From positions 32,943-96,942 of the forward strand of contig JAVJOW010000010.1 of NCBI GenBank assembly GCA_040216555.1: DNA of 64,000 bases. Direction: 5' to 3'. Shown one piece after another: positions 15,619-64,000 of this stretch. The position numbers and the translations under genes are program-made. The DNA is from Arenibacter sp. (GTDB taxonomy: Bacteria; Bacteroidota; Bacteroidia; Flavobacteriales; Flavobacteriaceae). Positions within the stretch are counted from its first letter, which is position 1; each line of letters begins with the position of its first letter. The notes below the pieces were generated by a model, which was given only the letters and a program-made list of their open reading frames with translations, did not search any database and was not told the DNA's origin.

Positions 15619-15622
15619 TATT

Positions 15623-19244: not shown

Positions 19245-19247
19245 ACC

Positions 19248-48833: not shown

Positions 48834-50399
48834 TTAGTCCAAATCCTTGATTACCTCTGTTAAGGCTTTATAAATGACTGGTCCTGTTTCTGGCCCCAAG
48901 GAATTTTCTTCCCCATAGGTGTCACCTTCGCCATTATAGAGGTACGGTTTTCCAGTATCCCATTCACTTTTTGGTATGATGTATCCAATTTCATCATTGG
49001 AAAGGCCCAAATAAAACTTGTACTTGTCGGAAATCAATTCTTGGAGTGGCGGTATCTCCATGGGCTGTATGTCAAACTCACGCCCTTCGGGAGCTTCTAT
49101 GCCACCATAAACAATTTCGGGGTATATTTCCCCGGGGATACTTAAAAATAGGGCAGGGCCTATTCTAATGGCGCCCACTTCTGTGCGGGATTTAAAATAT
49201 TCCGGCATGCCCATTTTGATCAGGCCAATACCACTGGCAATCTTAAAGGTAGTATTGTCCAATGGTGCGAAAATAGTCTTCGCCCTCAGCGAAATATTGG
49301 AACTCGACAAAGTATCCCCTTTTTGTTTTAAGGCTGCCAAGGACATTATGGCAATTTGGTCGCCCAAAGCTTTGGTTTTTTCAAAAGTAGGTTCAAAATA
49401 TTCTTCCCCAGTAAAGGGGTCTGGAATGCCCAAGGAGGGGTGTGGAGCCATTAGTCCGCCAATGGCACCCGAAAAATAAATGGCCACTCCGCCAAGTCCT
49501 TTTTCTACCTGTACCTCTCCATTGTATACGCCATTTTCCATGGCTTCCCGTATATAATGTGGAAAATCCGAACTGATCAATAAATTTTGCGACCAGAGTG
49601 TTTCTGGATGGTTGGCCCAATTGATAAGCGTTCCCATAGTAGAATCGTCTTCGGCATCCAGGACCTGCATTAAATGTATTCCAGTGGCCTTAACAATCGG
49701 TTTTCGGGTGTCTTTGATTAGTTTGTCATCTTCCCCTGAAAGGTCTTCGGCAAAAACCAATTTAGCCGGCCGTAAATTGTTGGCTGCCTCTGTAATAGCG
49801 GCAACGGTTTGAGATTTGACATATTCCATCATGTCTGGATTTACTCCGGAATTGAAGATATTTTCACCCCAGATGCCCACAAGGTCATTGCTTTCGTGGG
49901 TATGTGTAGAGGATAATAAGGTGTAATCTACTCCCAGCTCGGCGGGTATTTGTTTTCTGATGTCGATTACATCGCCGTGTAAAAAACCAATGGCGTCCAT
50001 GGAAATCATGGCTATCCTGGTATTTCCATCATCGATCACCATTACCCGGGACCACACATCATCATGTACCCCCTGGGCAGGTTTGGCATTGCTCATCCCC
50101 GCTATCCAATACGCATCAAATTTTCCATTGTTATTGTTGTCGTTATAGGTGTCGCCTTCATCCTTGCTGTATTTGTTGTTTCCATTGGCATCGTTCCAAG
50201 TGTCCACAATGGTAGGGGTAATGGGTTTTTTGGAAAATCCAGCTTTTATGGGCTGCGGAGATTTGTTTTCAATTTTAAGATCGATGGAATAGTCCGGATG
50301 GCGGTCGCGCCAGTTGTACATCACTACCGATGCCCCAACGATTATCAGTAGCAGTATACCTATCCCAAGAATTTTTAAGGCCTTTTTTAAAGTTTTCAT
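48834..50399 (-). CDS. Neutral/alkaline ceramidase-fold amidohydrolase-like protein, N-terminally anchored (paralogue 1)
   Basis: N-terminal TM; GVHDDVWSRVMV, STHTHE, NWANHPET, SSDFP, IPGEIYPE and GLSNDEIGYI. Confidence 0.72.
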   Translation of the reverse strand: MKTLKKALKILGIGILLLIIVGASVVMYNWRDRHPDYSIDLKIENKSPQPIKAGFSKKPITPTIVDTWNDANGNNKYSKDEGDTYNDNNNNGKFDAYWIAGMSNAKPAQGVHDDVWSRVMVIDDGNTRIAMISMDAIGFLHGDVIDIRKQIPAELGVDYTLLSSTHTHESNDLVGIWGENIFNSGVNPDMMEYVKSQTVAAITEAANNLRPAKLVFAEDLSGEDDKLIKDTRKPIVKATGIHLMQVLDAEDDSTMGTLINWANHPETLWSQNLLISSDFPHYIREAMENGVYNGEVQVEKGLGGVAIYFSGAIGGLMAPHPSLGIPDPFTGEEYFEPTFEKTKALGDQIAIMSLAALKQKGDTLSSSNISLRAKTIFAPLDNTTFKIASGIGLIKMGMPEYFKSRTEVGAIRIGPALFLSIPGEIYPEIVYGGIEAPEGREFDIQPMEIPPLQELISDKYKFYLGLSNDEIGYIIPKSEWDTGKPYLYNGEGDTYGEENSLGPETGPVIYKALTEVIKDLD

Positions 50400-50409
50400 T
50401 ATTTATGTT

Positions 50410-51810
50410 TTATAGCTTGGTATGCGTTAATTCATTGGCCAATTTAAAATTGAGTTCCATGAGATAATCGCCCATACTTGGCCCGTACCATCCCATTAGC
50501 CGAGCTTCATAGGTATCAAAATAATAATATTTTTGTGGTACGATATAGCCTAGATATTGGCCGTTAAAACTACTGAGAACGGAATTGTATCCTTGAAGTT
50601 CCAAGGCATTTTTTAGATCCAGACCGTATTCCCCACTTAACTCATACGGCAGGGCAAGCCAGATGAGATTGTTTAGTTTAAGGCCCTGTACCTGGATAGG
50701 GTTCATTTTGGGCATCAGTTTGCTTCCAAGATATGGGGACAGGCGTAAGCGGTCCGATATGTAGAGGAACTGCAGCTTTGGAATTTCTATTTCCGAAGAT
50801 ATCGCCGTTAAGACCATATTTGCCTGATATTCCATTTTGTCCAAGGCGGATCGGGCCGAATCGGCAAGGGTTTCCCCGATGTATTTGGCTTTTTCAAATT
50901 TCTCACCAATACCTTTATTACTGTGGCTTCCGACCGTACCTGCAAAGAATAGGGCCAAGTCAATTCCATTTTCTTCCAAATGTCGTTGGAAATATCCAGG
51001 ATAATCCCCGGTATATTGTTCGTTATCGGTACCAATAACCGTGGCATGTGCGGAAAAAGCGCCGATAGTAGCTTTTTTGCCGTTTTCCTGAATAAAGGAT
51101 AAAAGATCTAATTTGTCATTAAGACGCCCGGATTCACCTATGATCCTATTGCGCACCAAATTGGGAACCTTAACATAGCCTGAAGAAAATTGGGCAGGTT
51201 GTTTGTCTTCCAAGGCTTGTAAAATGAGGGCGGAAAATTTCTGACCTAGCCATTCTACTACCTCGGGTTGATATTCCCCACCAAAACTTTTGCCCACATA
51301 ACCGGGCATACAATTGCCAATGCTGGAATGGGTATGGGTAGCCCCAAAAAAGAGCTGATTTCGGGATATTTTTCCTTTTAGGTTGTCTGAAACCTTTTTA
51401 ACAACGTCTTCCGGTATTGCCACTAGATCGGCATTGATCAAAACAACGGTTTCATTATCGACTTCAACGGCGATTGCTTTGGCAAAAATGGAATCGTGAA
51501 CACCGGTCGCAATTTTACCGCTACCATATCCGGCCATTTTTATATTGTTGAATTCACCTTTGGTGGGGTCCGGAGTACCACTTATTATTTTTGGGGTGAT
51601 ATTGATCCTTGCGAATCCAGCAAGCATCGGACCCTTGGCCTCGGTTTTATTTTTTATGGACTCCTCTATATTTTCAATAGTATTGCTATAATACTCCGTT
51701 TCAAAATATGGCGTAGTATCAATAGTGCTGGTCGCAAAAAAGAATAGAATAACAAAGAGTACTATTAGCACCCCAAAAATTTTAAGCAATACCCGTAACC
51801 ATTTTCCCAT
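50410..51810 (-). CDS. Neutral/alkaline ceramidase-fold protein, N-terminally anchored (paralogue 2)
   Basis: N-terminal TM; MAGYG, GVHDSIFAKA, ATHTHSS, FSAHAT, TGDYPG, LPYELSG and YLGYI. Confidence 0.75.
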   Translation of the reverse strand: MGKWLRVLLKIFGVLIVLFVILFFFATSTIDTTPYFETEYYSNTIENIEESIKNKTEAKGPMLAGFARINITPKIISGTPDPTKGEFNNIKMAGYGSGKIATGVHDSIFAKAIAVEVDNETVVLINADLVAIPEDVVKKVSDNLKGKISRNQLFFGATHTHSSIGNCMPGYVGKSFGGEYQPEVVEWLGQKFSALILQALEDKQPAQFSSGYVKVPNLVRNRIIGESGRLNDKLDLLSFIQENGKKATIGAFSAHATVIGTDNEQYTGDYPGYFQRHLEENGIDLALFFAGTVGSHSNKGIGEKFEKAKYIGETLADSARSALDKMEYQANMVLTAISSEIEIPKLQFLYISDRLRLSPYLGSKLMPKMNPIQVQGLKLNNLIWLALPYELSGEYGLDLKNALELQGYNSVLSSFNGQYLGYIVPQKYYYFDTYEARLMGWYGPSMGDYLMELNFKLANELTHTKL

Positions 51811-51818
51811 TGTTGTTT

Positions 51819-52898
51819 TTAATTAAGTTTTTGCGGATCCAAAACGATGTACTTCACTGTTTTTCTGTTCCATGTATATACAATATGTACTTTCCCATCA
51901 GGAGCCTGTATCATGGTAGGATAGGAATATTCTTCCCCTTCCTTATCCGTATTTTCCCTTAAGGGTTCCAGGTCCAAAACACGTTTCCAATTTGTGCCGT
52001 CATTGGACAGGGCCAGGCTCAATGGCACCCGATCTCCCCAATTTTTCCCGGTAGGGTTGTAAACCAACAATTGGCGCCCATCTTTTAGGCTAACGCCATC
52101 AATGCCAGAATTGGGATTGGGTAAGGCAGTGGCGGTCATTTTGCTCCAAGTACTGCCGTAATCGGAAGACCAATTTTGTGTAACAACTTCGTTTTCAGTT
52201 CTACTCAAGAGCTGTAATTTGCCATTTCCATAATTTAGGACCACGGGTTGAATGGCGCCAAATTCCTTTCCATCATTAAGAGGCTGGGTTTTGGACCAAG
52301 TCTTTCCGTTATCAGTACTAAGTTCTAGATGTATTTTCCATCCGTCAGTGTCGTCTTCCGTGCTGGATGGAGAGAGTATTTCACCACTTGCCAATTGTAT
52401 GGGCTGGTTTTTAATGGGTCCCAGAATACCTTCTGGTAGATGTATTGGCTTGGACCAAGTTTTTCCATCATCATTAGAGGTCATATACAGCCCCCACCAT
52501 TCGGTAGGACTTGGACCTACCTTGTAAAATAAAAATAGCGGTTGGTCTTTGGGTTTAAATAATACCGGGTTCCAACAAGGGTATCTAGTACCATCTTCCT
52601 GCACACCGTTCACTACTTCTATAGGGGTAGACCATGAACCACTAGTATTTCGGGAAACCCAAATGCCAACATCATCATTTTTTTCTTCGGTACCACCAAA
52701 CCAAGAGGCTATTACGGTCCCATTGCTTACTTCTAAAGTGGAGGCATGGCATTCAGGGGTAAGTGCATCTTCCAATTCATAAATAAATTCTTGTTCCACA
52801 ATGGCAGGATGGTCCAATGGAACCACTTCCGGTAATTTTTCCATTTTTCCTTTACACGATACTACTAACAAGGTACACAATAAAAATAAAAGTCTCAT
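51819..52898 (-). CDS. BNR/Asp-box beta-propeller (sialidase-like) lipoprotein
   Basis: Lipobox VVSC; Asp-boxes SNDDGKTW, STDNGKTW, SSDYGSTW and SNDGTNW; YSYP. Confidence 0.8.
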   Translation of the reverse strand: MRLLFLLCTLLVVSCKGKMEKLPEVVPLDHPAIVEQEFIYELEDALTPECHASTLEVSNGTVIASWFGGTEEKNDDVGIWVSRNTSGSWSTPIEVVNGVQEDGTRYPCWNPVLFKPKDQPLFLFYKVGPSPTEWWGLYMTSNDDGKTWSKPIHLPEGILGPIKNQPIQLASGEILSPSSTEDDTDGWKIHLELSTDNGKTWSKTQPLNDGKEFGAIQPVVLNYGNGKLQLLSRTENEVVTQNWSSDYGSTWSKMTATALPNPNSGIDGVSLKDGRQLLVYNPTGKNWGDRVPLSLALSNDGTNWKRVLDLEPLRENTDKEGEEYSYPTMIQAPDGKVHIVYTWNRKTVKYIVLDPQKLN

Positions 52899-55261
52899 AA
52901 GGTAGATTTAGATGATTGTTGATTACTTAAAAGGTGTGGCTCTTTGGCCATTATAAAAGTTAGTTGACCGCCATTGGCAATTTCTTCGTGCTTTATCCAA
53001 GTGCGGCCCAAGGGCTTGCTGTTCAGCAGTATTTTTTTTACATAGATGTTATTGGGATCGTAGTTTTCCGTACCAATGTTCAATTGATGTTCGCCCATTT
53101 GTAGAACAGCATTCTTAAATAATGGTGCGCCCAGTTGATAAATGTCCGTTCCGGCAATAGGATAAAACCCAAGGGAGCTAAAAATGTACCAGGCCGACAA
53201 GGTGCCCGCATCATCATTGCCGTCTATGCCCACATAGGAATTATCGTATTTATTGTCCAGTATCCAACGGATCCATTTTTGGGTCAAATCGGGCCGTTCC
53301 ACGGAATTGAAAAGATAGGCTGCATGGATATCCGGTTCATTGCCATGCCAGTAGTAGGAGCCTGGGGTCCAGGTTGCTTTTTTTGGATCGGCTTTGGCAA
53401 AAAAGTTGTTCAGTTCACTCACAAAATAATCCTTGTTCTTAAAAAGAGATACCAAGCCGTCTGTGTCATAGGGCACCGCCCACCGCCATTGTAGGGCACT
53501 TCCTTCGGTATAATCCTTGGTATACTCATGGTCCCAATCGGTATAGGTGAGTTGCAAGGGCTTAAATTTTTCCACAAATCTTCCATCCTTATATCTAGGT
53601 TGAAAATACTGGGTATCTGGATTCCATACATTCTTATAAAATTTGGAATGTCTTTCAAAAAGGATTTGGTCTTCAGGCAGTTGTAATTCTTTGGCCAAAA
53701 GGCTTATGGAATGGTCGGCCCAGGCATATTCCAGGGTTTTGCTTACGGCTTCATCCCCAAATTCTGTTGGGCAATAGCCATAGGTAAGGTATCCTTCAAT
53801 CTCTTCCCGGCCAGCAGCGGAACTATCTTTGGGAATGGGCTCCAGGGCCACTTGTCTCATTTTTTTATAGGCAAGGTCCACATCAAAATTGCGTATACCC
53901 TTTAAGTAGGATTCTGCAATGACCATATCGGCAGGGGAACCCAGCATGGAATTACTATACCCGTACCCCGAGGGCCAACGAGGTAAGCTACCCCCTTGTT
54001 TTGCCATTTCCACCAAGGAGACCAACATATCCCTTTGCTCGTCCTTTGCTATTAGATTGAATAGTGGATGTACGGTGCGGAAAGTATCCCATAAGGAAAG
54101 ATCCGTGTAGTAGTTGAAATCGGTAGCTTGGTGGATTTTTTTGTCGAAGCCCATGAATTCCCCATTAACATCATTAAAGATGGTCGGCATTTGAAAACTC
54201 CTATATAAAGCACTGTAAAAGACTTTTTTATCTTCCAAGGAGCCACCATCGATTTTAATTAATGACAGTTTGCTTTCCCATTTGTCCTTGGCCATTTGAA
54301 GTATATCGACAAAATTACGATGGCCTACTTCGGTCTCCAGGTTTAAACGGGCATTTTCAATACTTATATGTGAAATACCAACTTTGGTATTTATATTTTC
54401 TTGGGTGAATCCGAGATAAATTTTTAGACTGTCACTTTTTTTACTAAGGCCTTTTTTGTCCAATGATTGTCCATCCCAGATGCCATAGTCGGAAAATGGT
54501 TGGTCAAATTTTGCCACGAAGTATACCTGTATTCCACCGAATCGACTTGCAAAGCTGCCAAATGTCCTAACCGAACCTTCAATTTCATAGTTCTTGGGGA
54601 GTATGTGGACAAACCCTTCCTTTGCTGGACGGTTTCCAGTGGTATTGGTAATATGGATAATCAAATTTTTGTTGCCTTCGTTGGGAAAGGTATATCGGTG
54701 AAGGCCGCTACGTTCTGTGGCCGTAAGTTCGGCAACAATGTCCTCTTTTTCTAATGCTACACGATAATACCCAGGAAATGCGATTTCATCGTTATGAGAA
54801 AATTTATGAGCATAATCCAATTGGAAATCAATTTTGTCACTGGGTGTAGTTGTGGGTGTAAATAGAAAATGCCCTCCGTCGGTTGCACCTGTCCCGGCCA
54901 ATCGGGTATGACTAAAGCCTAATATTTTGTTGTCCCCATAGTAATACCCGGAAGTGCTAAAATTTTTGGTGTTATTGTAGAAAGACATGGTTTCGGGACT
55001 TAGGCGGACCATACCAAAGGGAAGGGTGGCGCCCGGAAAGTTAAATCCACAAACCCAATACGGAAAGCCTCCCGTTCCTATAAAGGTGTTAACAAATTTC
55101 CCTAATTCTCCTGGGCTTACGTTTTCTGTTTGATTCTTTGGAGTTGCCTTTACAATACTATTGTATTTAAAGCTAGCTATAAAAATAGCAAGAAGCACTA
55201 GGCCTATGACCATTCCAATGGCATAGGCAGTGATTTTCGCTAGTCTTTTGAGCAACTTCAT
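52895..55261 (-). CDS. GH92 alpha-mannosidase family protein
   Basis: VNTFIGTGG, PGATLPFGMVRLSP, GFSHTRLAG, SLWDTFR, YTEGS..QWRW, HGNEP and GNDDAGTLSAWY. Confidence 0.92.
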   Translation of the reverse strand: MKLLKRLAKITAYAIGMVIGLVLLAIFIASFKYNSIVKATPKNQTENVSPGELGKFVNTFIGTGGFPYWVCGFNFPGATLPFGMVRLSPETMSFYNNTKNFSTSGYYYGDNKILGFSHTRLAGTGATDGGHFLFTPTTTPSDKIDFQLDYAHKFSHNDEIAFPGYYRVALEKEDIVAELTATERSGLHRYTFPNEGNKNLIIHITNTTGNRPAKEGFVHILPKNYEIEGSVRTFGSFASRFGGIQVYFVAKFDQPFSDYGIWDGQSLDKKGLSKKSDSLKIYLGFTQENINTKVGISHISIENARLNLETEVGHRNFVDILQMAKDKWESKLSLIKIDGGSLEDKKVFYSALYRSFQMPTIFNDVNGEFMGFDKKIHQATDFNYYTDLSLWDTFRTVHPLFNLIAKDEQRDMLVSLVEMAKQGGSLPRWPSGYGYSNSMLGSPADMVIAESYLKGIRNFDVDLAYKKMRQVALEPIPKDSSAAGREEIEGYLTYGYCPTEFGDEAVSKTLEYAWADHSISLLAKELQLPEDQILFERHSKFYKNVWNPDTQYFQPRYKDGRFVEKFKPLQLTYTDWDHEYTKDYTEGSALQWRWAVPYDTDGLVSLFKNKDYFVSELNNFFAKADPKKATWTPGSYYWHGNEPDIHAAYLFNSVERPDLTQKWIRWILDNKYDNSYVGIDGNDDAGTLSAWYIFSSLGFYPIAGTDIYQLGAPLFKNAVLQMGEHQLNIGTENYDPNNIYVKKILLNSKPLGRTWIKHEEIANGGQLTFIMAKEPHLLSNQQSSKSTL

Positions 55262-55277
55262 TGGGATTCCTAATATT

Positions 55278-56234
55278 TTAGTTTAATGGGATGTGCTTTT
55301 CAAAAAATCGATCCATATGGTATTGGCAATAAGCATTCACTTTTACCGAGGCATCCATAGTATGTGGCCACCCTTTTAGTTTGTGGTAATACGAAATGGC
55401 ACCGGCCTTTTGTAGCGTAGCATGCAATATATCAGATTGTTCATAGGGAACCAACTCGTCCAAAGTACCTTGAAATGTAAGGGTTGGGGGCACGTTGTTG
55501 GAGATTAAAAACAAGGGGGAGGCTTTTTTATACATTTCTGGAGCCTCTTCATAGGATTTACCTATCAGATATTGAACCGAGGATGCTTTGATGGCCGTTT
55601 CATCGGTAAGGTTGGAAGGGCCGTAAAAATTTACAATAGCCTGTACATTTGCAGATACCCCGTTTGTATCCACATCATCCGGCGTATTGGAATAGGCGTT
55701 CATCATGGCTAAATGGCCACCTGCGGATCCGCCGACCATGGCAACTTTAGTGGCATCTATATGATAATTGGCAGCATTAAGTTTAAGCCATCTTACAGCG
55801 TCTTCCACATCATGGAGCTGGGCAGGATATTTTGCGACATCTGTTAATCTATATTGAATAGTAGCTGTAACATAGCCTTTTTTCGCGAAACTGGCTAGAT
55901 ACAACAAGTAATCGTGTTTGTTTCCTTTTTTCCATGCACCACCATGAATGAAAATTATTAGAGGCGCATCTTTTTTTATATCCTTGGAATGGTAAATGTC
56001 CAATTTAAGCTGGATAGAGTCCACGGTTTTGTAGACAACATCTTTGTATTCCTTTATGTCCTCTGGAATGGGGAAGTCGGTTTCTATTATTTTTAAGGCC
56101 CCGGTTGCATAGGCAATCTTTAAAGTAGTATTGTTGGAGTATCCCTTTGGGGGGACAGACACATCATATGGTTTGGCCTTACAGCCCAGCAATAAGGTTA
56201 ATGCAATTATGGGAATGAAAATATTTCTAATCAT
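55278..56234 (-). CDS. Lipoprotein alpha/beta hydrolase (HSL/BD-FAE-like), paralogue A
   Basis: Start Met 56234 overlapping the upstream TGA (track start 56321); lipobox LLGC; IHGGAW, GGSAGGH, GTLDELVP and WPH. Confidence 0.85.
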   Translation of the reverse strand: MIRNIFIPIIALTLLLGCKAKPYDVSVPPKGYSNNTTLKIAYATGALKIIETDFPIPEDIKEYKDVVYKTVDSIQLKLDIYHSKDIKKDAPLIIFIHGGAWKKGNKHDYLLYLASFAKKGYVTATIQYRLTDVAKYPAQLHDVEDAVRWLKLNAANYHIDATKVAMVGGSAGGHLAMMNAYSNTPDDVDTNGVSANVQAIVNFYGPSNLTDETAIKASSVQYLIGKSYEEAPEMYKKASPLFLISNNVPPTLTFQGTLDELVPYEQSDILHATLQKAGAISYYHKLKGWPHTMDASVKVNAYCQYHMDRFFEKHIPLN

Positions 56235-57184
56235 AGTTTTAAATGTTTTTCCAAGAATATATCTGTATGATATTGGATATAGGAGAACACCTTTGCAGAA
56301 AGGTCCATAGCATGTGGCCAACCCTTTAATTCGTGATAGTAACTGGGAACCCTATAAGTTTGCAATGTTTCATGAAGTTTTTTGGACTGGCCATAAGGGA
56401 CCAGTTCATCCAAAGTGCCATGAAAGGAAATTGTTGGTGGGGAGTCTTTATTTACATATAAAATGGGTGAAGCCTGTTTGTACATTTCCGGGGCTTCCTC
56501 ATATGTCTTTCCAAATAATCGATGTACCCTTTTTTCCTTTTTTGCAATTTCGGTTGTTAAATCCGAAGGCCCATAAATATTTATTACGGCCTGCACATTG
56601 GTAGGTATACCATTGCTGTCCACTGTATTGGAAGAATGGGTATAGGCGTACTGCATGGCCAAATGTGCCCCTGCAGAACCACCAGCGATGGCGACCTTAT
56701 TTACATTGATGTTGTAATCCTTTGCATGGAATTTTAACCATTTTACGGCGTCCTCAACATCCAAGATTTGCGCAGGGTACTTGGCCGCGCCGCTTAATCT
56801 GTATTGTATGGTCGCTGTTATATACCCCTTCTGTGCATAGCTGATCAAATAGTGTAACACATTGCTTTTCTTTCCTTTTTCCCAAGCCCCACCATGTATA
56901 AAAATGATAAGGGGAGCATCTTTTTTTAAGGCTTTAGGTTCATAGATGTCCAGCTTTAATGAAGTGCTATCTATGGTTTTATAAACCAGATTCTTGTGTT
57001 CTTGGATACTTTCCGGTATTGCTACCTTGGTTATAGTGGGCTCAATGGCACCTAGCGCATATGCTATTTTGAGACTGATGTTATTTGCAAAGCCTTTGGG
57101 CGGCAGGGAAGGATCGTATTGATCGGGCTTGCAGCCAACCACCAATAGAAACATCCAAATGACAAATACTATTCTCATGACCAT
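56231..57184 (-). CDS. Lipoprotein alpha/beta hydrolase (HSL/BD-FAE-like), paralogue B
   Basis: Lipobox VVGC; IHGGAW, GGSAGAH, GTLDELVP and WPH; colinear with 55278-56234. Confidence 0.85.
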   Translation of the reverse strand: MVMRIVFVIWMFLLVVGCKPDQYDPSLPPKGFANNISLKIAYALGAIEPTITKVAIPESIQEHKNLVYKTIDSTSLKLDIYEPKALKKDAPLIIFIHGGAWEKGKKSNVLHYLISYAQKGYITATIQYRLSGAAKYPAQILDVEDAVKWLKFHAKDYNINVNKVAIAGGSAGAHLAMQYAYTHSSNTVDSNGIPTNVQAVINIYGPSDLTTEIAKKEKRVHRLFGKTYEEAPEMYKQASPILYVNKDSPPTISFHGTLDELVPYGQSKKLHETLQTYRVPSYYHELKGWPHAMDLSAKVFSYIQYHTDIFLEKHLKL

Positions 57185-57196
57185 AATTTATTATCC

Positions 57197-58477
57197 TTAA
57201 GGTTCAGATTTTTTATTATTGATGAAAAATTCTTTAAGTTTTATTGTTTTGTTATTTACTAAGGGGCTTGCCCAAAATCCGATACTAAAAATAAAACCAA
57301 GTGTGATATACAAAAAGAACATGCCACCTTTTAGTCCAACCAAATCACCTAAAGCCCCAATTATAAGGGGGACAATGGCCCCACCTACAATTCCGGAACA
57401 CAATATACCCGACAGGGCTCCATGGTTTTCCTTAACAGAGTTCAACGCTAGGGAAAAAATAACGGACCACATTATAGAGGCAAAAAAACCTACCAGGGGG
57501 AACGCTAAAACCGCTATATGGGCAGGGCCAAAAAGTGCAGCTGACAAACTTAGAATGGCAGCTCCAGAAAATATTTTAAGTACCAATTTGCTATCCATAA
57601 ATTTTAGTAGTAGTAATCCTAAGATACAGCCAACCGTCAGTAATCCCCAAAACAAGGATATGGCATTGGCTCCCTCTATTCTGGGGTCCATGCTATGATA
57701 TTCCGATAAAAATTGTGACATCCAATTGGCGACACCCTGTTCTGTGCCAACATAGGCGAACAAGCCCATAAAGAATAGGATTACTTTTTTGTTTTTTAAC
57801 AAACCTTTGTTTGTGGACCAGTTGCCCGCTTTTTCCTCATTATTTCTTTCAACCTTAGGTAATTTTATGGAATAAATGAGGATGATCATAATCAGCGAGA
57901 TGATCGCGAATATCCAGTAAAGTGAAACCCAAGGCAAATTTCCGGGTACTATATTGTGAAAAATGTTGATGATAAAATTGGTATTGTCAGGACCAGGGTA
58001 GTTTTCCAAGTTAAGCACGAGATAGGTGAAAAGGAACGGGCTAATAAAAGAGGCCATTCCAAATGCCAATTGGCCCATAACGGAATTAAAGGCAAAATGT
58101 TCCTCACCCCCTGCCACCCTTAATAAAGGATTTATGGCCACTTGCAACATGGCCATTCCCGAACCAATTAAAAACAGGGATATTAAGGCCATGGAAAAAT
58201 TGGGAAAAATGGAAAATAAAACGGCTCCCAAAAAAGATACCATAAATGCGGCCAGGATTACCTGTTTTTCTCCGTAACGCTCAACAGCAATGCCCGAGGG
58301 TATGGAAAATATCCCATAAGCAACAAAAAAGGCGAATGGCAACAGGGCGGCCATGGTTAAGCTAACCTTGAAATCCGAGATGATATCGGGGATCAAGGGG
58401 CCTAGAATATTGGTAAGAAAGGAAATGACAAAAAAGATGAATAAAATAAGGGCAACAATAAACTGATTTTTTCCCAT
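57197..58477 (-). CDS. MFS sugar transporter (FucP/GluP-like)
   Basis: About 12 TM segments; LQVAINP, YVGTEQG and GGAIVP. Confidence 0.87.
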   Translation of the reverse strand: MGKNQFIVALILFIFFVISFLTNILGPLIPDIISDFKVSLTMAALLPFAFFVAYGIFSIPSGIAVERYGEKQVILAAFMVSFLGAVLFSIFPNFSMALISLFLIGSGMAMLQVAINPLLRVAGGEEHFAFNSVMGQLAFGMASFISPFLFTYLVLNLENYPGPDNTNFIINIFHNIVPGNLPWVSLYWIFAIISLIMIILIYSIKLPKVERNNEEKAGNWSTNKGLLKNKKVILFFMGLFAYVGTEQGVANWMSQFLSEYHSMDPRIEGANAISLFWGLLTVGCILGLLLLKFMDSKLVLKIFSGAAILSLSAALFGPAHIAVLAFPLVGFFASIMWSVIFSLALNSVKENHGALSGILCSGIVGGAIVPLIIGALGDLVGLKGGMFFLYITLGFIFSIGFWASPLVNNKTIKLKEFFINNKKSEP

Positions 58478-58493
58478 CTTATGTTTGTCAGGT

Positions 58494-59384
58494 TTAATTG
58501 GAAGTGTCTTTTTCCAGGCTTAATTCATCTTTTACCCCAAGTGGTTTCCTGATAAAAATAATTACCGTTGCCGTAATGAACATTAACAGGCCATAAATGG
58601 CGGGCACAATAGAGTATTCAGCATTGTTCAAGGCAATGGTAGCCAATGTTATGGCCAAGGTTCCATTTTGGATTCCCGTTTCAATGGAAATGCTTATGGC
58701 CTGTGGTCTTGTTAGTTTAAAAAGTACTGCCATTAAAAATCCTATGGTCATGGTACTCACATTGAGCAGTATGGCCGGTAGCCCTGCCTCACTTAAGTAG
58801 CTCATAAAAACATCCTTGACGCTAATGGTCACCCCAATGATTACCAATACAAATATAATGGCAGAAGCTATTTTCACAGGTTTCTCCATCTTGTTCGCAA
58901 AGGCTTCAAATTTATTTTTTATTAGCATGCCAATTCCTACGGGTATGATAACTATTACCAACAATTGTTTTATCATGGTTATGGCATCGACCGAAATGGC
59001 CATACTTTCATTGGAAAATTCTTCCATTGCAAATTGCACAATGAATGGGATGGTTAAAATGGAAATTATACTGGATACGGCTGTTAAGGAGACGGACAAG
59101 GCCAAATCGCCTTTGGCCAAATAAGTAAGCATGTTGGAGGTTGGTCCTCCAGGGCAGGCTGCCAATAACATAATGCCAATAGCGGTGGTGGGCGACAAAT
59201 TTAGGGAAATGGCAATGAAATATCCTATGATTGGTAACAACAACATCTGGCAGATAAGCCCTATGATCATGGCCTTTGGATAACTAACAACCCTCTTAAA
59301 ATCGGAAAGGGTCAATGATAGGCCCATCCCGAACATAATAATGATCAATGAAATGGCAAGGATAATTCCAGAGGTAGAATTCAT
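58494..59384 (-). CDS. Bile acid:sodium symporter (BASS) family transporter
   Basis: MFGMGLSL, CPGGPTSN, AKGDLALS and ETGIQNGTLA. Confidence 0.9.
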   Translation of the reverse strand: MNSTSGIILAISLIIIMFGMGLSLTLSDFKRVVSYPKAMIIGLICQMLLLPIIGYFIAISLNLSPTTAIGIMLLAACPGGPTSNMLTYLAKGDLALSVSLTAVSSIISILTIPFIVQFAMEEFSNESMAISVDAITMIKQLLVIVIIPVGIGMLIKNKFEAFANKMEKPVKIASAIIFVLVIIGVTISVKDVFMSYLSEAGLPAILLNVSTMTIGFLMAVLFKLTRPQAISISIETGIQNGTLAITLATIALNNAEYSIVPAIYGLLMFITATVIIFIRKPLGVKDELSLEKDTSN

Positions 59385-59583
59385 GACAAATAGGTTTTAA
59401 AATAAATCCTTATTATTTTCCCAAAAACTGGGAGATACACAAATAAAACTTTTTAAAAATTATTTTCCTTATTAAATTTTATTGGATTTGCATTATAATT
59501 TACCAAAAAATCATATATCTGTTAATTTTTATGTTAAAAGAGTTAGGATATTTTAGATTTTTGGTTTGATTTTGTTTCATATT

Positions 59584-59626
59584 AAAAAGAAAAGACCGAC
59601 AAGGTCTGTTTGCCTTTGCCGGTCTT
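59584..59626 (-). terminator. Intrinsic terminator after the YdjC-family gene
   Basis: Minus strand aagaccggcaaagg-caaacaga-ccttgtcggtctt followed by ttctttt. Confidence 0.7.
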
Positions 59627-59694
59627 AAAATTGGCCTGTTCCCAAGCAAATATTTCCTATTCTCCCATATCGGTGGATATCCTAATATGAGTGT

Positions 59695-60723
59695 TTATTT
59701 CATGGCGTTGAAGCGGGTCATGATTTCTTTCCAATTGGTAAAAATTATTCCCTCCTCTTTAAAGTAATTGATAAGATCGGGATCGGCAAAAATTTGTGAT
59801 TCCCAAACCCTTTGTTGCCATGATCCCGTAATGCCCCTTAGGTTATCGGTTTCTACAGAAGGGTGAAAAATGATTTCAGTAAGTCCAGGTTGAAGGGATT
59901 TTATCAATGACTTGAAACTTTCCACTTTTTCTTCATAGGAATCCGCCTTTGGTGCACTGCTAAAAAAGTCCAATTTGGGCAAAGTGTATTCTTCCGACAT
60001 TTTAACTACCGAATCATCCATGGGATAACCTTGTGACCTAAATTCCGCCAATACTGCTGGTACCGATATATCAATAATATTTGCTGGAATACCGTATTCC
60101 TGGGCCACTTTCATGTAGACCTTTACATAACTGGGGTCACCGAACAGGGTGCCCATGTGGGTATCTATGTGGTCTGGTCTATAGCCCCAGGCAATAGATT
60201 GTTCAATTTGAGCCCGTATTTCTTTTTCCACTTCCTCGGCCGAAGCATGTTGTACTACTTCCGGAACGCTCCTCCATAGTTTGTCTTCCGGATCCAATAG
60301 TCCAGGGACTTCCGCATCTGGGGTAATTGGGCCCCAACGATGCTTTTTCCATTCACTGGTAAGTGTAAGGTGCAGACCAACATCCATAGCAGGGTTTTCC
60401 TTGGCCCAATTGATGAATTCTTCGGCGTTGGGACAGGGTATCATCACGGCGGCGGATTGTATTTCCCCCTTGGTCAATTGATCCTTGGCAGCAATGTTCG
60501 CCTCTGGACACATCCCAATGTCATCTGCGTGCAGCATAATTACCTTTTTTCCGGCAGGCCATCCTAATTTTTCGGCCCAAGTTGTTGCTACTGCCGATGA
60601 TTTTTGTTCCGTGGTGTCTGAATTGATGGCTTCATCAGTATTTTTTTTCTTTTCCCCGCATCCACTTAAGAAGAGAGACATGGAAAAGCTTAGTGATAAG
60701 GCAAATAGATATGAATTTTTCAT
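59695..60723 (-). CDS. YdjC/ChbG-like carbohydrate deacetylase, lipoprotein
   Basis: Start Met 60723 with lipobox LSGC (track start 60816); LHADDIG, VGLHLTL, DHIDTHMG and EIIFHP. Confidence 0.82.
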   Translation of the reverse strand: MKNSYLFALSLSFSMSLFLSGCGEKKKNTDEAINSDTTEQKSSAVATTWAEKLGWPAGKKVIMLHADDIGMCPEANIAAKDQLTKGEIQSAAVMIPCPNAEEFINWAKENPAMDVGLHLTLTSEWKKHRWGPITPDAEVPGLLDPEDKLWRSVPEVVQHASAEEVEKEIRAQIEQSIAWGYRPDHIDTHMGTLFGDPSYVKVYMKVAQEYGIPANIIDISVPAVLAEFRSQGYPMDDSVVKMSEEYTLPKLDFFSSAPKADSYEEKVESFKSLIKSLQPGLTEIIFHPSVETDNLRGITGSWQQRVWESQIFADPDLINYFKEEGIIFTNWKEIMTRFNAMK

Positions 60724-60742
60724 TTTTTTTTGATGTTTTAAT

Positions 60743-61660
60743 TTATAAATATTTTTTAAACCAATTGAGCCCGTCTCCGAAAATGATATCCAATGGGGCA
60801 TCCCTATGTTTTGCATCGTACCATATAATATCTTTGGGCTCTTGTGCCGCTTTAATAAGAAGGGTGCTCATTAGGGGAGGTACTATTTCATCGTTTTTTG
60901 CATTTAACATGAGGAACGGACGGGGGGCAATCTGCTTTACAAAGTTTAAGGGCTCAATAATGCTTACAAAATCTTTTGCCTCCTTGGTCAGGGCCTCTTT
61001 TTCGTACAATAAATTCAATTGTCCGCCCGCTAAGGCAACTATCGGAACTTTTATGCGATTCTCGATTCCGCAAAAAATAGTGCCTGTAATACCGCCCAAA
61101 CTTATGCCGTAGTATCCGATCCTTTTGGCGTCCAATTCTTCCCGCGTTTCAATAAAGTCGACCGCACGTCTTAGGTCGAATACGGTCTGACTAATAATGT
61201 CCCTGCTCCAGTATTTGTATTTTCCGGTAAGGCTAAAATCATAAACGTCCCCCTTTCGTTCCCCGTGCTCGCTAAAATCGATCCTTAGCACCGCATAGCC
61301 ATTTTTAAGAAAAAGGTCGTTGCCATAGGATACATAATCCACGTTCTTGTTGTCTCCAAGGCCGTGCATTAAAATGACCACGGGTAGGGGAGAGGTCCTA
61401 TTTTTGGGCAGGCTCAACAGGCCGGTCACCTTTTTTTGATGTACGCTATTGTAAGTTACATGATATAACTTAAAATCTGTAGTGTCTTTTAACAGGTTCA
61501 GGGAATCCTTAAGCAGTATATCTTTATCATAAGCGTAATATTCGTTTACCGGAAAAGCTTCGCTTGTGTCACTGGCGTAAAGGATTGTAAATGCCAACAA
61601 TAACAGAAAGGTTATTAATCCCAAAAACCAATATAGACGTTTTTTACTATAGGATTTCAT
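60743..61660 (-). CDS. Membrane-anchored alpha/beta hydrolase (esterase-like)
   Basis: N-terminal TM; MHGLG, GISLGG nucleophile, NDEIVP and terminal H (DAKH). Confidence 0.8.
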   Translation of the reverse strand: MKSYSKKRLYWFLGLITFLLLLAFTILYASDTSEAFPVNEYYAYDKDILLKDSLNLLKDTTDFKLYHVTYNSVHQKKVTGLLSLPKNRTSPLPVVILMHGLGDNKNVDYVSYGNDLFLKNGYAVLRIDFSEHGERKGDVYDFSLTGKYKYWSRDIISQTVFDLRRAVDFIETREELDAKRIGYYGISLGGITGTIFCGIENRIKVPIVALAGGQLNLLYEKEALTKEAKDFVSIIEPLNFVKQIAPRPFLMLNAKNDEIVPPLMSTLLIKAAQEPKDIIWYDAKHRDAPLDIIFGDGLNWFKKYL

Positions 61661-63032
61661 CGTCGTCCGCTACATACATTCTAGTACTCTTGGTGTATTT
61701 ACCTCCATTGGGGTCTGCATATTCCAGATCGATATAGAAAGCCTTATAACCACTTTTTGGAAATTTTACTTGTTGAAAAATATGGTCATGATCTTTGGAG
61801 TCCAATTTTTCGAAGGTCCATTTTTCATCCCTAAAGTCCCTATCCGTTGAATCGGCAGACCATATATAGGCATTTTCAAGCTCATCGGAAGTGGTTTTGA
61901 CCGTTAGGGTCGCCGAGGTTGTGTCAGTACTTAAATCATAGGACAGGGAAGCTTGGGGAGTTTTGTTCAGGGATTTGCCCCAGAATGCACTTAGAGCCCT
62001 TACAGCCTGTTCACCACCGCCCAGATCATGACCGGCATTGGGTACATAATGAATATAATTTTCACCAGGAATATCATCGATATAATTTTTAATGGCGTCC
62101 ACAGGCCAGTATTCATCATTGGTGCCGATAAATATTAATTTGGGCATGGTTAAATTGGCCCGGTAGGAATAAGGGTCTACCATTTGGGTCAACGCCTTAC
62201 CATCCTCACTTCCTACGGTTTGCGGAATTTCCAATTGTATGTAATCATTGATCTGTATGCTGTATTCGTTCCAAGCCGTAATTTGATAATCGAGGCTTAC
62301 GGGCATATTTAAAACGTCTATTACCATTGGCGCTATGGTCTCGACCCTCTTGTCGTTTGCTCCGGTCAACCAAGTGGTCCAACCTCTTTTTGAAGCTCCT
62401 GTTACCGTAAATCGGGTAACCTCTTTTTGAAGATTTTTACTGGCGAAATCCTGAACGGCATCCATAGCTCTGACAGCGCTTTTTACCATTGGAAATAATA
62501 AGGGCCATGTTGGGTCTTTGTCATTTTTATAGTTGTGAAGAGTAAAGGAAATAAGTTCATCTTCTGTAAGGCCATCATATAGGGGTTGGTTGGGAACCTG
62601 TCTAACAATAGCCACTATGGCTTTGTTCTTTTCGGCTACCTGGGCAAAGCTGATGGACTTTTTATCTTCTTCATTATTTGACCAATTGGGTATCCCTTCT
62701 TTTATGCTTCCTCCGGTAATCAATAGTAGGGCCCCGTCATGGGCAACTTCTTTGGGGACCAATACGGTGAGTTCATGGGTCCAAACGTGTTCCCTCCATT
62801 TTTGGGAGGTCAGCATAAGCTCATAAGCGGTTACATCCCCTATGGCATAATTATCTTTCACTTCCCATTTATACGTTTTATCTTCATTGTTTAAATAGCT
62901 TTGCAATGCGTTGGAAGGAGTTACTTTAGTTGCGACCGGGGCAACATTTTCCGCCAGTTTTTTTGGACTGTCCTTACAGGAAAATATACATAATAAGGAC
63001 ATCGATAAAAAAATAGAAACCAACTTATTCAT
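61647..63032 (-). CDS. PqaA (PhoPQ-activated pathogenicity-related) family lipoprotein
   Basis: Lipobox IFSC; LTSQKW..HVWTH, QVPNQP, ED.LI, WPLLFPM.K, TGASKRGWT, VDPYSY and NDEYW. Confidence 0.85.
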   Translation of the reverse strand: MNKLVSIFLSMSLLCIFSCKDSPKKLAENVAPVATKVTPSNALQSYLNNEDKTYKWEVKDNYAIGDVTAYELMLTSQKWREHVWTHELTVLVPKEVAHDGALLLITGGSIKEGIPNWSNNEEDKKSISFAQVAEKNKAIVAIVRQVPNQPLYDGLTEDELISFTLHNYKNDKDPTWPLLFPMVKSAVRAMDAVQDFASKNLQKEVTRFTVTGASKRGWTTWLTGANDKRVETIAPMVIDVLNMPVSLDYQITAWNEYSIQINDYIQLEIPQTVGSEDGKALTQMVDPYSYRANLTMPKLIFIGTNDEYWPVDAIKNYIDDIPGENYIHYVPNAGHDLGGGEQAVRALSAFWGKSLNKTPQASLSYDLSTDTTSATLTVKTTSDELENAYIWSADSTDRDFRDEKWTFEKLDSKDHDHIFQQVKFPKSGYKAFYIDLEYADPNGGKYTKSTRMYVADDDEIL

Positions 63033-63064
63033 TTGGAACTTGTGTTAAAAGGTTAAGAATTGTT

Positions 63065-64000
63065 TTATTTATTAGGTTTTGGACTGTTTTGGATTAGGGT
63101 CAATAGATCATTGATAAGGATTTCTCCTGTTTCTTCCCCTAGACTAGTGCGACTTACATACATATATCTTTTAAAACTGTTAAAATCCTCTTTGGTCAAA
63201 ATATACCCAAAGGCATCGTTGGTCAATCCAAAAAGAAAAGGATGTTCCGTGGGCATATTTCTTTTTAAGTAGTAACCTATATTGGGTAGGGCTTCACCTG
63301 GTATGGTCAGGATCTGGGCCGATCCAATATTTAGTAGGTTAAGGGTTGTAGTGACATATTGGTCAGAGTCGCCCATTTTTAAGGGTGAATTGTTTAAAAT
63401 GTACCGCATCATTTCCGAATCTATTGGGAATTCGGCCTTGGTGGAAGCACAATAGAGGTCTGGATCCTCTTGGATTTTGGCCTCAGATAAAATCCTCAAG
63501 GCCTCGTCTGCCAGAAGATTCCCTATTCGCTTGCATTCTTCCCAATCGTTTGCTTCCTTATTATCGTCCTGTCTATTGTCTGCCGTTACCATTCCTCCCT
63601 GGGCACCGTTCATAAACAGGGCCATTCCGCCTGCCTTGGCTTCAATTCTGTCGTATAGGGGTCCTATAAGGTCCGGACTCAATATTCTCTGATCGCTGCC
63701 TATTACCTCTGGATGAATGGCATAGTTAACCAAAGTTACTATGGGTAGGTCCTTGTTTTTGCCTTTAGTACCTAGGGCCTGTATTACACCACATCTTGGG
63801 TCGTACAAATCAGGGGCGTAATAATTGTAGGCTATTTTGCCGTGGGCTTCGCCAACGGCAATTTTTAATTTGGCGGGTTCCAAATTTGCAGAAGCCTCAT
63901 TCACCGCATCCGCAATTTGGGTTACACACCAGTCAAGATACTGTAAATCGGCTGCATAATTACCTTTTTCGTCAGGGAAAGCATACGCGTCGGGAGCACT
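63065..64000 (-). CDS. Neutral ceramidase-fold protein (paralogue 3), 5' part outside the window
   Basis: Frame stays open from 63065 to the edge (SAPDAYAFPD...); NYAIHPEV, LSPDLIG, NGAQGG, IPGEALP and GLTNDAFGYI match paralogue 1. Confidence 0.72.
   Translation of the reverse strand, partial: SAPDAYAFPDEKGNYAADLQYLDWCVTQIADAVNEASANLEPAKLKIAVGEAHGKIAYNYYAPDLYDPRCGVIQALGTKGKNKDLPIVTLVNYAIHPEVIGSDQRILSPDLIGPLYDRIEAKAGGMALFMNGAQGGMVTADNRQDDNKEANDWEECKRIGNLLADEALRILSEAKIQEDPDLYCASTKAEFPIDSEMMRYILNNSPLKMGDSDQYVTTTLNLLNIGSAQILTIPGEALPNIGYYLKRNMPTEHPFLFGLTNDAFGYILTKEDFNSFKRYMYVSRTSLGEETGEILINDLLTLIQNSPKPNK

Follow-up and report, generated by a model that had tools for sequence, protein, structure and literature searches.

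In a 64,000-nucleotide stretch of Arenibacter sp. DNA (assembly GCA_040216555.1, contig JAVJOW010000010.1, positions 32,943 to 96,942; hereafter the window), the genes running on the minus strand from the window end down to position 48834 were found to be one arm of a SusC/SusD utilisation locus. The conserved core of this locus type is SusC/SusD, the ceramidase-fold protein CerC, and the PF10142 hydrolase PqaA, often joined by a phosphoesterase and an esterase, while the predicted mannosidase GH92, the predicted deacetylase YdjC, and a major facilitator superfamily (MFS) permease are lineage-specific accessories. The argument is carried by the gene content, the conservation of the neighbourhood in other species, the fold and catalytic residues of the ceramidase-like proteins CerA, CerB, and CerC, and a set of domain fusions. 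We put the chances at about even that the locus dismantles a phosphorylated, O- and N-acylated glycoconjugate, probably an amphipathic one such as a glycolipid or a lipoglycan fragment.

The Adjoining SusC/SusD Operon

An exact-protein look-up retrieved a contig (L001/L083) overlapping the window end, from which about 11.4 kb of further sequence was read (L083). A second operon, divergent from CerC, begins about 300 bp upstream of it. Its first gene encodes a PKD-domain lipoprotein; the SusC/SusD pair lies about 1 kb past the window end, with a SusC of 1123 aa (CarboxypepD_reg, Plug, and beta-barrel domains) followed by a SusD of 551 aa (SusD-like_2). The operon also encodes a 373-aa metallophosphoesterase, which among solved structures is closest to purple acid phosphatases (PAPs), and two polytopic membrane proteins that match no known family, Mem427 (423 aa; L083:930-2201, minus strand) and a 219-aa protein encoded by the last gene (L083:253-912, minus strand). 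Because SusC and SusD lie directly past the window end, the window genes form one arm of a SusC/D utilisation locus, that is, a polysaccharide utilisation locus (PUL). As is usual for a PUL, adjacent SusC and SusD genes are co-localised with GH92, BNR_2, YdjC, and carbohydrate esterase (CE)-like genes. Homology of the locus metallophosphoesterases to acid sphingomyelinase was considered and dropped; their matches include plant PAPs, and acid sphingomyelinase is absent among them.

A preliminary description of the stretch, made from the window sequence alone, had held that the locus runs past the window, as these genes confirm. It had also proposed looking beyond 64 kb for SusC/SusD or a regulator; the former were present, and no regulator of the hybrid two-component system (HTCS), extracytoplasmic function (ECF) sigma/anti-sigma, SusR, or XylR type was seen in the approximately 25 kb read for this strain. 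Orthologous SusC/SusD genes elsewhere are flanked by ECF sigma genes (eight loci) or XylR-like genes (five loci).

The region between the PKD gene and CerC holds an AT-rich block (L001 ~8520-8640), TTCAGATAT.TTATTAAATAT.CATTAAAT.TTA.CC...AATATTCTTA, which is kept between the Arenibacter contig and the related locus L089 and partly in Maribacter (L004). The block is a candidate shared promoter or operator of both divergent operons. Mem427 recurs in 11 of 81 neighbourhoods, often adjoining a DegT-type aminotransferase, a puzzling presence in a catabolic locus.

Conservation of the Locus across Species

To define core and accessory genes, a PqaA alignment was compared with one genome per species, with at least 594 relatives recovered; of their loci, the 80 best were retained for tblastn of the locus proteins, all-against-all clustering of open reading frames (ORFs), and Pfam/NCBIfam scans of cluster representatives. 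Neighbourhood counts out of 81 refer to these 80 loci plus the Arenibacter locus where the gene is present. The 80 loci span at least five orders (Flavobacteriales, Cytophagales, Chitinophagales, Sphingobacteriales, and Bacteroidales/Marinilabiliales), with single bins labelled Acidobacteriota and Omnitrophota, and the locus type occurs in soil, freshwater, marine, and sludge Bacteroidota.

SusD and SusC were the most frequent partners of PqaA (45 and 43 of 81 neighbourhoods), followed by a CerC/CerA-type amidase (33), a BD-FAE esterase (25), a 467-aa PAP-like enzyme (20), BNR_2 (18), the PKD lipoprotein (16), and U716, a beta-propeller-like protein of ~716 aa (15). YdjC was seen in 11 neighbourhoods, GH92 and the BASS transporter in 9 each, and ABH305, CerB, and an ECF sigma factor in 8 each. 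Lower counts were obtained for a PHP-domain protein and the DegT aminotransferase (7 each), a NagX-like glucosamine (GlcN) N-acetyltransferase (6), GH31 (5), and the MFS permease (4). CerC adjoins PqaA in 33 of the 80 species at 60-72% identity. Of the 80 PqaA-anchored loci, 45 contain SusC/D, 33 a ceramidase-like gene, 31 a phosphoesterase of the PAP, metallophosphoesterase, PHP, or metallo-beta-lactamase type, and 27 an esterase. Besides esterases, the sialidase-like propeller and enzymes that modify amino sugars often accompany the core. SusC/D together with a ceramidase-like gene was likewise found in 27 of 80, 19 of which also carry a phosphoesterase. No partner gene was present in 19 of the 80 loci, many of which are short contigs.

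Gene order is also recurrent, namely [ECF sigma] SusC SusD [PAP] CerC PqaA [PAP] [BD-FAE] [BNR_2] [Mem427] [DegT], with [GH92] PKD SusC SusD PqaA CerB PHP CerC in Bacteroidia. Across classes, the median identity to the Arenibacter proteins is 51% for SusC and 53% for SusD, while second SusD copies within these loci show 28-45%. This difference suggests that the SusC/SusD pairs are orthologous and serve one conserved ligand.

The preliminary description regarded the genes as one functional unit, a view that failure to co-occur in other genomes would have refuted. The co-occurrence data support it: L089, whose GH92 is 71% identical, keeps the whole arrangement with both blocks and PKD/SusC, lacking only the MFS gene; Maribacter L004 carries the genes of both blocks in a single string; and domain fusions join several of the enzymes (see below). 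The same description proposed a synteny search for PqaA, ceramidase-fold, GH92, and YdjC genes. The PqaA/CerC core stood, whereas GH92 and YdjC did not recur at comparable frequency. Since GH92, YdjC, and the MFS permease are rare among the 81 neighbourhoods, they are accessories, and the "mannosylated" character that had been ascribed to the substrate is not a core property.

Loci with more divergent GH92 orthologues vary in content. The locus L086 (GH92 59% identical) holds several GH92 genes with CerB, PKD, BD-FAE, YdjC, GH31, ABH, PqaA, and CerC, and in addition a GDPD phosphodiesterase, U716, a GlcNAc-2-epimerase-family protein, and an SSF transporter. L087 (57%) combines GH92 and PKD with two PAP-like enzymes, a U716-like protein, and an unassigned 718-aa protein, and L088, a Verrucomicrobia bin (56%), places GH92 with U716 and U782. 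In L085 (61%), a BNR_2-GH92 pair lies in an otherwise ordinary glycan locus (GH95, GH141, GH78, GH20), so the mannosidase is a recurrent, non-exclusive partner.

Several proteins travelling with these loci deserve mention. U716 (~716-785 aa; e.g., L033:5317-7467, minus strand, and L061:18282-20630, plus strand) gives only a faint Reg_prop propeller signal, and U782 (~780 aa) has a weakly GH20b-like N-terminus. Both co-travel with the locus type and with the anchored-GH92 lineage (L085-L088), including the Verrucomicrobia bin; neither was seen in the Arenibacter sequence that was read. Both are candidates for glycosidases not yet described. A GH92 orthologue 67% identical to that of the window adjoins a gene for a 2581-aa multidomain protein sorted by the type IX secretion system (L084:2128-9873, plus strand), with DUF5060, fn3/PAP-N-like, GDSL esterase, GH31, two PKD, and FG-GAP/ASPIC domains and a Por secretion tail. 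We considered this protein as a Rosetta-stone fusion for the phosphatase and rejected it, as it has an fn3-like PAP N-domain but no phosphatase domain; it links only GDSL esterase, GH31, PKD, and FG-GAP.

The Ceramidase-Fold Amidases

CerC is cut by the window end, so that the window holds its C-terminal 311 codons (63065->64000, minus strand); the start lies beyond it, and the full-length protein of 428 aa (P0121) was read in L001/L083. Pfam scores for Ceramidase_alk-like domains are weak (CerA, 34 bits; CerB, 54 bits; CerC, 26 bits). The AlphaFold2 (AF2) model of CerC (mean predicted local distance difference test score, pLDDT, 82.7) matched only neutral ceramidases in Foldseek (2zws, 2zxc, 4wgk), with E-values of 3e-22 to 4e-20 and query-normalised TM-scores (TMq) of 0.68-0.70, at 14-17% identity; the next match had E>1e-3. 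The match spans approximately 47% of the ceramidase chains (target-normalised TM-score, TMt, 0.45-0.49). CerB matches 2zws directly in the PDB (E 8e-8), and CerA is 27% identical to CerC and falls in the same sequence cluster. The ceramidase fold that had been proposed from sequence is therefore confirmed, together with conservation of its catalytic residues.

Alignment of CerA, CerB, and CerC with 19 homologues revealed the invariant residues H115, T116, H117, H213, E353 (IPGE), Y383 (GY), and Y396. The crystallised ceramidases have matching HTHS and IPGE motifs in alignment. The invariant residues presumably include the counterparts of the zinc ligands and the catalytic His of 2zws and 4wgk. 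When compared with the full-length neutral ceramidase model (NCBIfam NF041649), the proteins score 21-22 bits against a cut-off of 1200 bits. Given these low scores and the missing ceramidase C-terminal domain, we refer to them as ceramidase-fold amidohydrolases, not as ceramidases by membership. The truncated ceramidase-like group to which they belong comprises 7,214 clusters at 50% identity with E<=1e-3 (2,504 with E<=1e-10), and most members are ~400-450 aa long.

Domain fusions were found that join a ceramidase-like domain to PhoPQ_related (P0471), to BNR_2 (P0361), and to BD-FAE (P0362). They mirror the gene adjacencies of the locus, which argues that these enzymes act on one substrate. 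An SCP2 lipid-transfer domain is present at the C-terminus of 11 of 26 longer relatives of the group, five of which also match the alkyl-sulfatase C-terminal domain. Of the available data, the SCP2 fusions hint most strongly at a hydrophobic amide substrate. One protein of the fusion set (P0471, P0361, P0362, P0369, P0374, P0386) carries two ceramidase-like domains together with SCP2. CerB, where present, is often followed by a gene for a PHP-domain protein.

PqaA

PqaA (61647-63032, minus strand) is a lipoprotein with the lipobox IFSC and is 91% identical to the PqaA of A. palladensis. It matches PF10142 (PhoPQ_related) at 358 bits over profile positions 1-367 of 367. In an alignment of 18 sequences, S214 (in GASKRG), D306, and H335 are invariant and constitute a candidate Ser-Asp-His triad. 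The AF2 model, built with 18 close homologues, was poor (pLDDT 63.7; residues 235-340 below 50), and its Foldseek matches to CE7 and other esterases (TMq ~0.3 or lower) indicate a generic alpha/beta hydrolase only; no solved structure of any PqaA relative was found. A GMC oxidoreductase gene recurs near PqaA in four other species. MEROPS files PF10142 as peptidase family S82, which includes Dictyostelium AprA and is termed "barely characterized"; PF10142 proteins are abundant in Dictyostelium (PMC4920372).

Gene Layout and the Remaining Enzymes

The ORF listing of the window contains 12 minus-strand genes, unbroken from the window end down to 48834 and arranged in two blocks, in line with the preliminary description of at least 12 co-oriented, tightly packed genes. 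Its family calls (three ceramidase-fold proteins, PqaA, GH92, esterases, YdjC, MFS, BASS) were all upheld by Pfam/NCBIfam; one gene that it had left unnamed encodes the BNR_2 lipoprotein. Neighbouring genes are separated by -14 to +32 bp, with the sole exception of a 310-bp gap (59385-59694) between the blocks. The terminator that had been placed near 59.6 kb corresponds to a candidate hairpin and T-run in this gap (59607-59593, minus strand), with a weak 5-bp stem on the coding strand, AGACC-ttgtc-GGTCT followed by TTTCTTTTT. Terminator-like sites are in no excess across the region (23 found, 17.7 +/- 4.3 expected), so the sole argument for this hairpin is its position. A scan for sigma-70-type promoters, which is ill-suited to Bacteroidota, showed no enrichment (36 against 40.6 expected), and no match in the window reached the Rfam gathering score. 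Downstream of CerA lies an unrelated exonuclease/GIY-YIG gene (47182-48561).

Block 1 begins with CerC and PqaA and continues with ABH305 (60743-61660), an AXE1/BD-FAE-like alpha/beta hydrolase of 305 aa according to Pfam, which follows PqaA in eight neighbourhoods, and YdjC (59695-60723), a predicted carbohydrate de-N-acetylase lipoprotein of 342 aa. Block 2 comprises, in order, the BASS/SBF transporter (58494-59384), the MFS permease (57197-58477), the BD-FAE esterase lipoproteins Est2 (56231-57184) and Est1 (55278-56234), GH92 (52895-55261), BNR_2 (51819-52898), CerB (50410-51810; 466 aa), and CerA (48834-50399; 521 aa, with an Asn/Asp-rich insert), the last gene of the locus; all lie on the minus strand. 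The longest ORFs of Est1 (from TTG 56321) and YdjC (from ATG 60816) run into the genes upstream. Starts at ATG 56234 and ATG 60723 are most likely because they give lipoprotein signal peptides and normal spacing; the former overlaps the Est2 stop codon (ATGA).

All locus enzymes are predicted to be exported, most of them as membrane-tethered proteins. A simple analysis of N-termini identified a lipobox in BNR_2, Est1, Est2, YdjC, and PqaA, and a hydrophobic anchor of 19-22 residues, of the uncleaved type and without a lipobox, in CerA, CerB, GH92, and ABH305. This agrees with the earlier statement that nearly every enzyme carries a lipobox or a transmembrane anchor; CerC has an ordinary signal peptide.

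GH92 is a predicted exo-alpha-mannosidase. Its catalytic and N-terminal domains score 499 and 223 bits in Pfam, above the curated cut-offs, and the TIGR01180 score of 560 bits exceeds the cut-off of 250 bits. Its long hydrophobic N-terminus is kept in 95 of 117 orthologues. The closest structures are BT3130 (6f8z, E 9e-124) and BT3965 (6f91). These two enzymes differ in linkage specificity, and the specificity of the locus GH92 is therefore not transferable from them.

The tandem paralogues Est1 and Est2 are 60% identical, share HGG and GGSAG motifs in alignment, and match BD-FAE at ~205 bits each (204 bits for Est2); the closest solved relative of Est2 is Lip_vut4 (6nkf). YdjC has a complete YdjC domain (Pfam, 188 bits) and the lipobox LSGC, with sub-threshold NCBIfam matches to carbohydrate deacetylase, HpnK, and ChbG models. 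Its closest solved relative is 8jqe (E 8e-45), on which no paper was found in the literature.

BNR_2 is a lipoprotein of the sialidase superfamily that matches its Pfam model over the full length (303 bits) and contains four S-x-D-x-G-x-T-W Asp-boxes. Both features agree with the six-bladed, Asp-box-bearing propeller of GH33 exo-sialidases. Matches to the sialidases NanC and NanB in the PDB are weak (residues 117-341 only, E>=1e-8), and the N-terminal RIP motif of the sialidase Arg triad was not visible when the translation was inspected by eye, without residue-level alignment. A DapA/NanA-family aldolase shares the neighbourhood of BNR_2 in four loci and directly adjoins it in L045. As for the transporters, BASS is predicted to be of the Na+-coupled organic-anion type (Pfam SBF, 144 bits; TIGR00841, 219 bits, under its cut-off), and the MFS permease shows weak, sub-cutoff resemblance to the GluP, FucP, and NagP models.

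Elsewhere in the window, a 642-aa fusion (5263-7191, minus strand) combines a glucosamine-6-phosphate isomerase/6-phosphogluconolactonase-type domain with a PIG-L (GlcNAc-PI de-N-acetylase/LmbE) domain; this amino-sugar enzyme lies ~42 kb from the locus, and no link between the two was shown. Tandem gene pairs at 13900-16330 and 17523-19967 (plus strand) each encode a GMC oxidoreductase (572 and 573 aa) followed by a gluconate 2-dehydrogenase subunit-3-like protein (235 and 239 aa), in a region of strongly positive GC skew. Ordinary envelope genes encode a NamZ exo-beta-N-acetylmuramidase of peptidoglycan recycling (37317-38564, minus strand) and a 1442-aa TamB-like protein (26375-30703, plus strand).

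Proposed Mechanism and Substrate

What each enzyme does, in which order, and on which substrate is predicted here from sequence and structure comparison. The substrate would be captured at the cell surface by the PKD lipoprotein, SusD, and SusC and taken apart in the periplasm by the membrane-tethered enzymes. O-acyl groups would be removed by the BD-FAE esterases, ABH305, and PqaA, N-acyl amide bonds cleaved by CerA, CerB, and CerC, and phosphate released by the PAP-like enzyme. In this lineage, GH92 would take off alpha-mannose and BNR_2 an ulosonic-acid-type sugar, while YdjC would de-N-acetylate an amino sugar; the MFS permease and the BASS transporter would then import the sugar and organic-acid products. 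An amino sugar in the substrate is suggested by YdjC, the NagX-like acetyltransferase, and the sub-cutoff NagP match of the MFS permease, and an ulosonic-acid-type residue by BNR_2 with the DapA/NanA-family aldolase in four loci. The GDPD and PHP proteins point to phosphodiesters, and the recurrent phosphoesterases (31/80 loci) fit a phosphorylated substrate.

Several observations weigh against an acylated, amphipathic glycoconjugate as the substrate. SusC/D systems are best known for soluble glycans, and the locus showed no genes for taking up or degrading fatty acids or sphingoid bases. PUL enzymes are normally anchored as lipoproteins, and such anchoring is not diagnostic of lipid substrates. 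The locus esterases match acetyl-xylan esterases equally closely, so that a non-lipid acetylated phosphoglycan would fit. CerA-C are 428-521 aa long, lack the C-terminal Ig-like domain, and share 14-19% identity with true ceramidases; the amide that they cut may bear a short acyl chain or an acetyl group. SCP2 fusions were found in relatives that share 33-38% identity with CerC and not in the window proteins, and the fusion proteins were examined as protein sequences, not on contigs. The survey reached +/-10 kb with crude ORF calls in the best 80 of at least 594 matches, and the sequencing runs containing locus sequence are of metagenomic DNA only, with no usable RNA run. The preliminary proposal of glycolipid catabolism is plausible, helped by the SCP2 fusions (11/26), yet unproven.

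Two kinds of membrane glycolipid each explain most of the features, and the data favour neither; taken singly, both are improbable targets. Eukaryotic inositol-phosphoceramide-type glycolipids or glycosylphosphatidylinositol (GPI) cores would include fungal mannosyl-inositol-phosphoceramides (MIPC and M(IP)2C), plant glycosyl inositol phosphoceramide (GIPC), and GPI anchors. Here GH92 would release mannose, YdjC/NagX would act on GlcN(Ac), a phosphoesterase on the phosphate, and the ceramidase-like enzymes on the ceramide. The ceramidase fold with its intact active site, the SCP2 fusions of relatives, the phosphoesterases together with the GDPD of L086, the alpha-specific glycosidases GH92 and GH31, the NagX-like GlcN acetyltransferase, and GFO/IDH/MocA oxidoreductases adjoining the GH92 lineage in L085 and L087 all suit such lipids. 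However, GH92 is only an accessory (9/81 neighbourhoods), almost no glycosidase occurs in the Cytophagia core loci, the phosphoesterases resemble plant PAPs and not acid sphingomyelinase, and such lipids offer no role for the sialidase-like BNR_2 or the DapA/NanA-family aldolase. Neither an Isc1-type (EEP) phospholipase C nor genes of inositol catabolism or transport were seen in any locus map, that is, among the Pfam/NCBIfam matches of the window locus, L083, L086, L089, and the recurrent clusters. The mannosyl-inositol-phosphoceramides and GPI-like anchors named in the preliminary description are accordingly not favoured over lipopolysaccharide (LPS)/lipid A or over soluble and other acylated phosphoglycans, which fit about as well; a fatty-acid-uptake gene was not seen either. 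For LPS/lipid A-core scavenged from necromass or prey, the esterases and PqaA would act on ester-linked chains, the ceramidase-fold enzymes on amide-linked 3-hydroxy-acyl groups of glucosamine, the PAP/PHP enzymes on the 1- and 4'-phosphates, BNR_2 as a hydrolase of the 3-deoxy-D-manno-octulosonic acid (Kdo) type, and GH92/GH31 on core sugars, with YdjC or NagX and the MFS permease processing glucosamine. Kdo-lipid A-core holds all six recurrent themes (phosphate, GlcN, ester acyl, amide acyl, ulosonic acid, and a manno-configured sugar), and a core locus without classical glycosidases would suffice for it. The conservation of SusC/D suggests a structurally invariant ligand, and the spread over soil, freshwater, marine, and sludge Bacteroidota fits as well. 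Salmonella pqaA is part of the lipid A-remodelling PhoPQ regulon, Dictyostelium has unassigned lipid A fatty-acyl amidases, and the Kdo hydrolase of Francisella and Helicobacter reportedly contains a sialidase-like subunit. Against LPS, no locus protein matches the lipid A deacylase families PagL, LpxR, or AOAH in Pfam or NCBIfam, no beta-1,6-glucosaminidase was recognised, BNR_2 has no assigned function, and we know of no precedent for SusC/D import of a lipid A derivative.

A substrate without any lipid is an equally doubtful proposition. It would be a soluble acetylated, phosphorylated polysaccharide or glycopeptide, such as a phosphomannan, a teichoic-acid-type polymer, or a capsular or algal phosphoglycan, on which the ceramidase-fold proteins and YdjC would remove N-acetyl groups or cleave amides, PqaA would be a peptidase or an acetyl esterase, and the BD-FAE proteins would be carbohydrate esterases. 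SusC/D with glycoside hydrolases, CE-like enzymes, and a phosphatase is standard PUL logic, and the resemblance of the esterases to acetyl-xylan esterases, the filing of PF10142 as peptidase family S82, the GH92 lineage accompanied by GH95, GH78, and GH20 in a plain glycan locus, and the XylR-like sugar regulators of five loci all agree with it. So does the GDPD of L086, a family that includes the teichoic-acid-degrading GlpQ. Nevertheless, long-chain amide hydrolysis is the only known chemistry of the ceramidase fold, SCP2 lipid-binding domains recur in the relatives, three paralogous amidases plus YdjC would be unusually redundant for N-acetyl removal, and the inner-membrane anchor is conserved on GH92, CerA, CerB, and ABH305. 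We regard it as very improbable that the enzymes serve, with no external substrate, to remodel or recycle envelope lipids of the cell itself (sphingolipids, lipid A, or aminolipids of Bacteroidota). They are membrane-anchored or lipoproteins, Bacteroidota make sphingolipids and N-acyl amino-acid lipids, and the Salmonella gene that gave PqaA its name is reportedly envelope-related; yet the genes keep recurring in close linkage with SusC/SusD importers and with the ECF-sigma or XylR-type regulators that typify nutrient loci, importers for sugars and anions are encoded as well, and PqaA is patchy among species, unlike a housekeeping function.

A more specific form of the glycoconjugate reading would have SusC/D-dependent import and full dismantling of a conserved phosphorylated glycolipid, either the lipid A-Kdo core from other bacteria or a plant or fungal lipid of the inositol-phosphoceramide type, with the truncated ceramidase-fold proteins as new long-chain N-deacylases and PF10142 as their O-deacylase partner. 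We advance it tentatively, as possible though not something we would expect. If true, it would give a function to two large orphan families and define an unrecognised membrane-glycolipid sink in soils and oceans, the first recognised pathway of this kind.

Comparison with Known Systems

PULs are the main route of complex-carbon recycling in Bacteroidota, and nearly all characterised ones target soluble polysaccharides. The present locus type stands out by its occurrence in at least five Bacteroidota orders, its unusually conserved SusC/SusD, and its uncharacterised defining enzymes. Identification of the substrate would give functions to the truncated ceramidase-fold family (thousands of clusters) and to PqaA/S82, with a possible mechanistic hint for Salmonella PqaA and the AprA-family proteins of Dictyostelium. 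Should the substrate be a membrane glycolipid (LPS/lipid A, GIPC, or similar), the locus would reveal how lipids that rank among the most abundant on Earth are turned over. The combination had not been recognised as a described pathway in the preliminary description, and a full-text literature search indeed found no description of this locus or of a PUL with a ceramidase-fold amidase and PF10142; the only match for ceramidase with SusD was a true ceramidase toxin of Tenacibaculum.

At the level of single enzymes, the neutral ceramidases (PaCD, 2zws; human ASAH2, 4wgk) share with CerA-C the fold of the catalytic domain, the ATHTHS motif, and the His, Glu, and Tyr positions. They differ in having ~650-700 aa and a C-terminal Ig-like domain, in contrast to the shorter proteins found here as three paralogues per locus. 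The locus PqaA resembles its family in the full-length match and the candidate Ser-Asp-His triad, yet it is a lipoprotein, its host is a marine flavobacterium, and its gene context is a SusC/D locus, not PhoPQ. YdjC has the full domain of the chitobiose deacetylase ChbG and of HpnK of hopanoid glycolipid synthesis; ChbG is cytoplasmic, whereas the locus protein is predicted to be an exported lipoprotein.

At the level of pathways, the degradation of sphingolipids in animal lysosomes by acid sphingomyelinase and ceramidase, and LPS detoxification by AOAH, follow a similar logic of phosphoesterase, O-deacylase, and amide hydrolase acting on an amphipathic phospho-lipid; no homology to them was detected, and the likeness is one of analogy only. 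The yeast alpha-mannan PULs of Bacteroides thetaiotaomicron also have SusC/SusD with a surface lipoprotein, periplasmic GH92, a phosphatase, esterases, a permease, and divergent operons. Unlike them, the Arenibacter locus has no GH76, GH125, GH38, or GH99, no regulator in the sequence read, and a GH92 that is dispensable, and its signature genes are the ceramidase-fold amidases and the PF10142 hydrolase. The architecture is that of a PUL; no description of its enzyme complement was found in the literature search.

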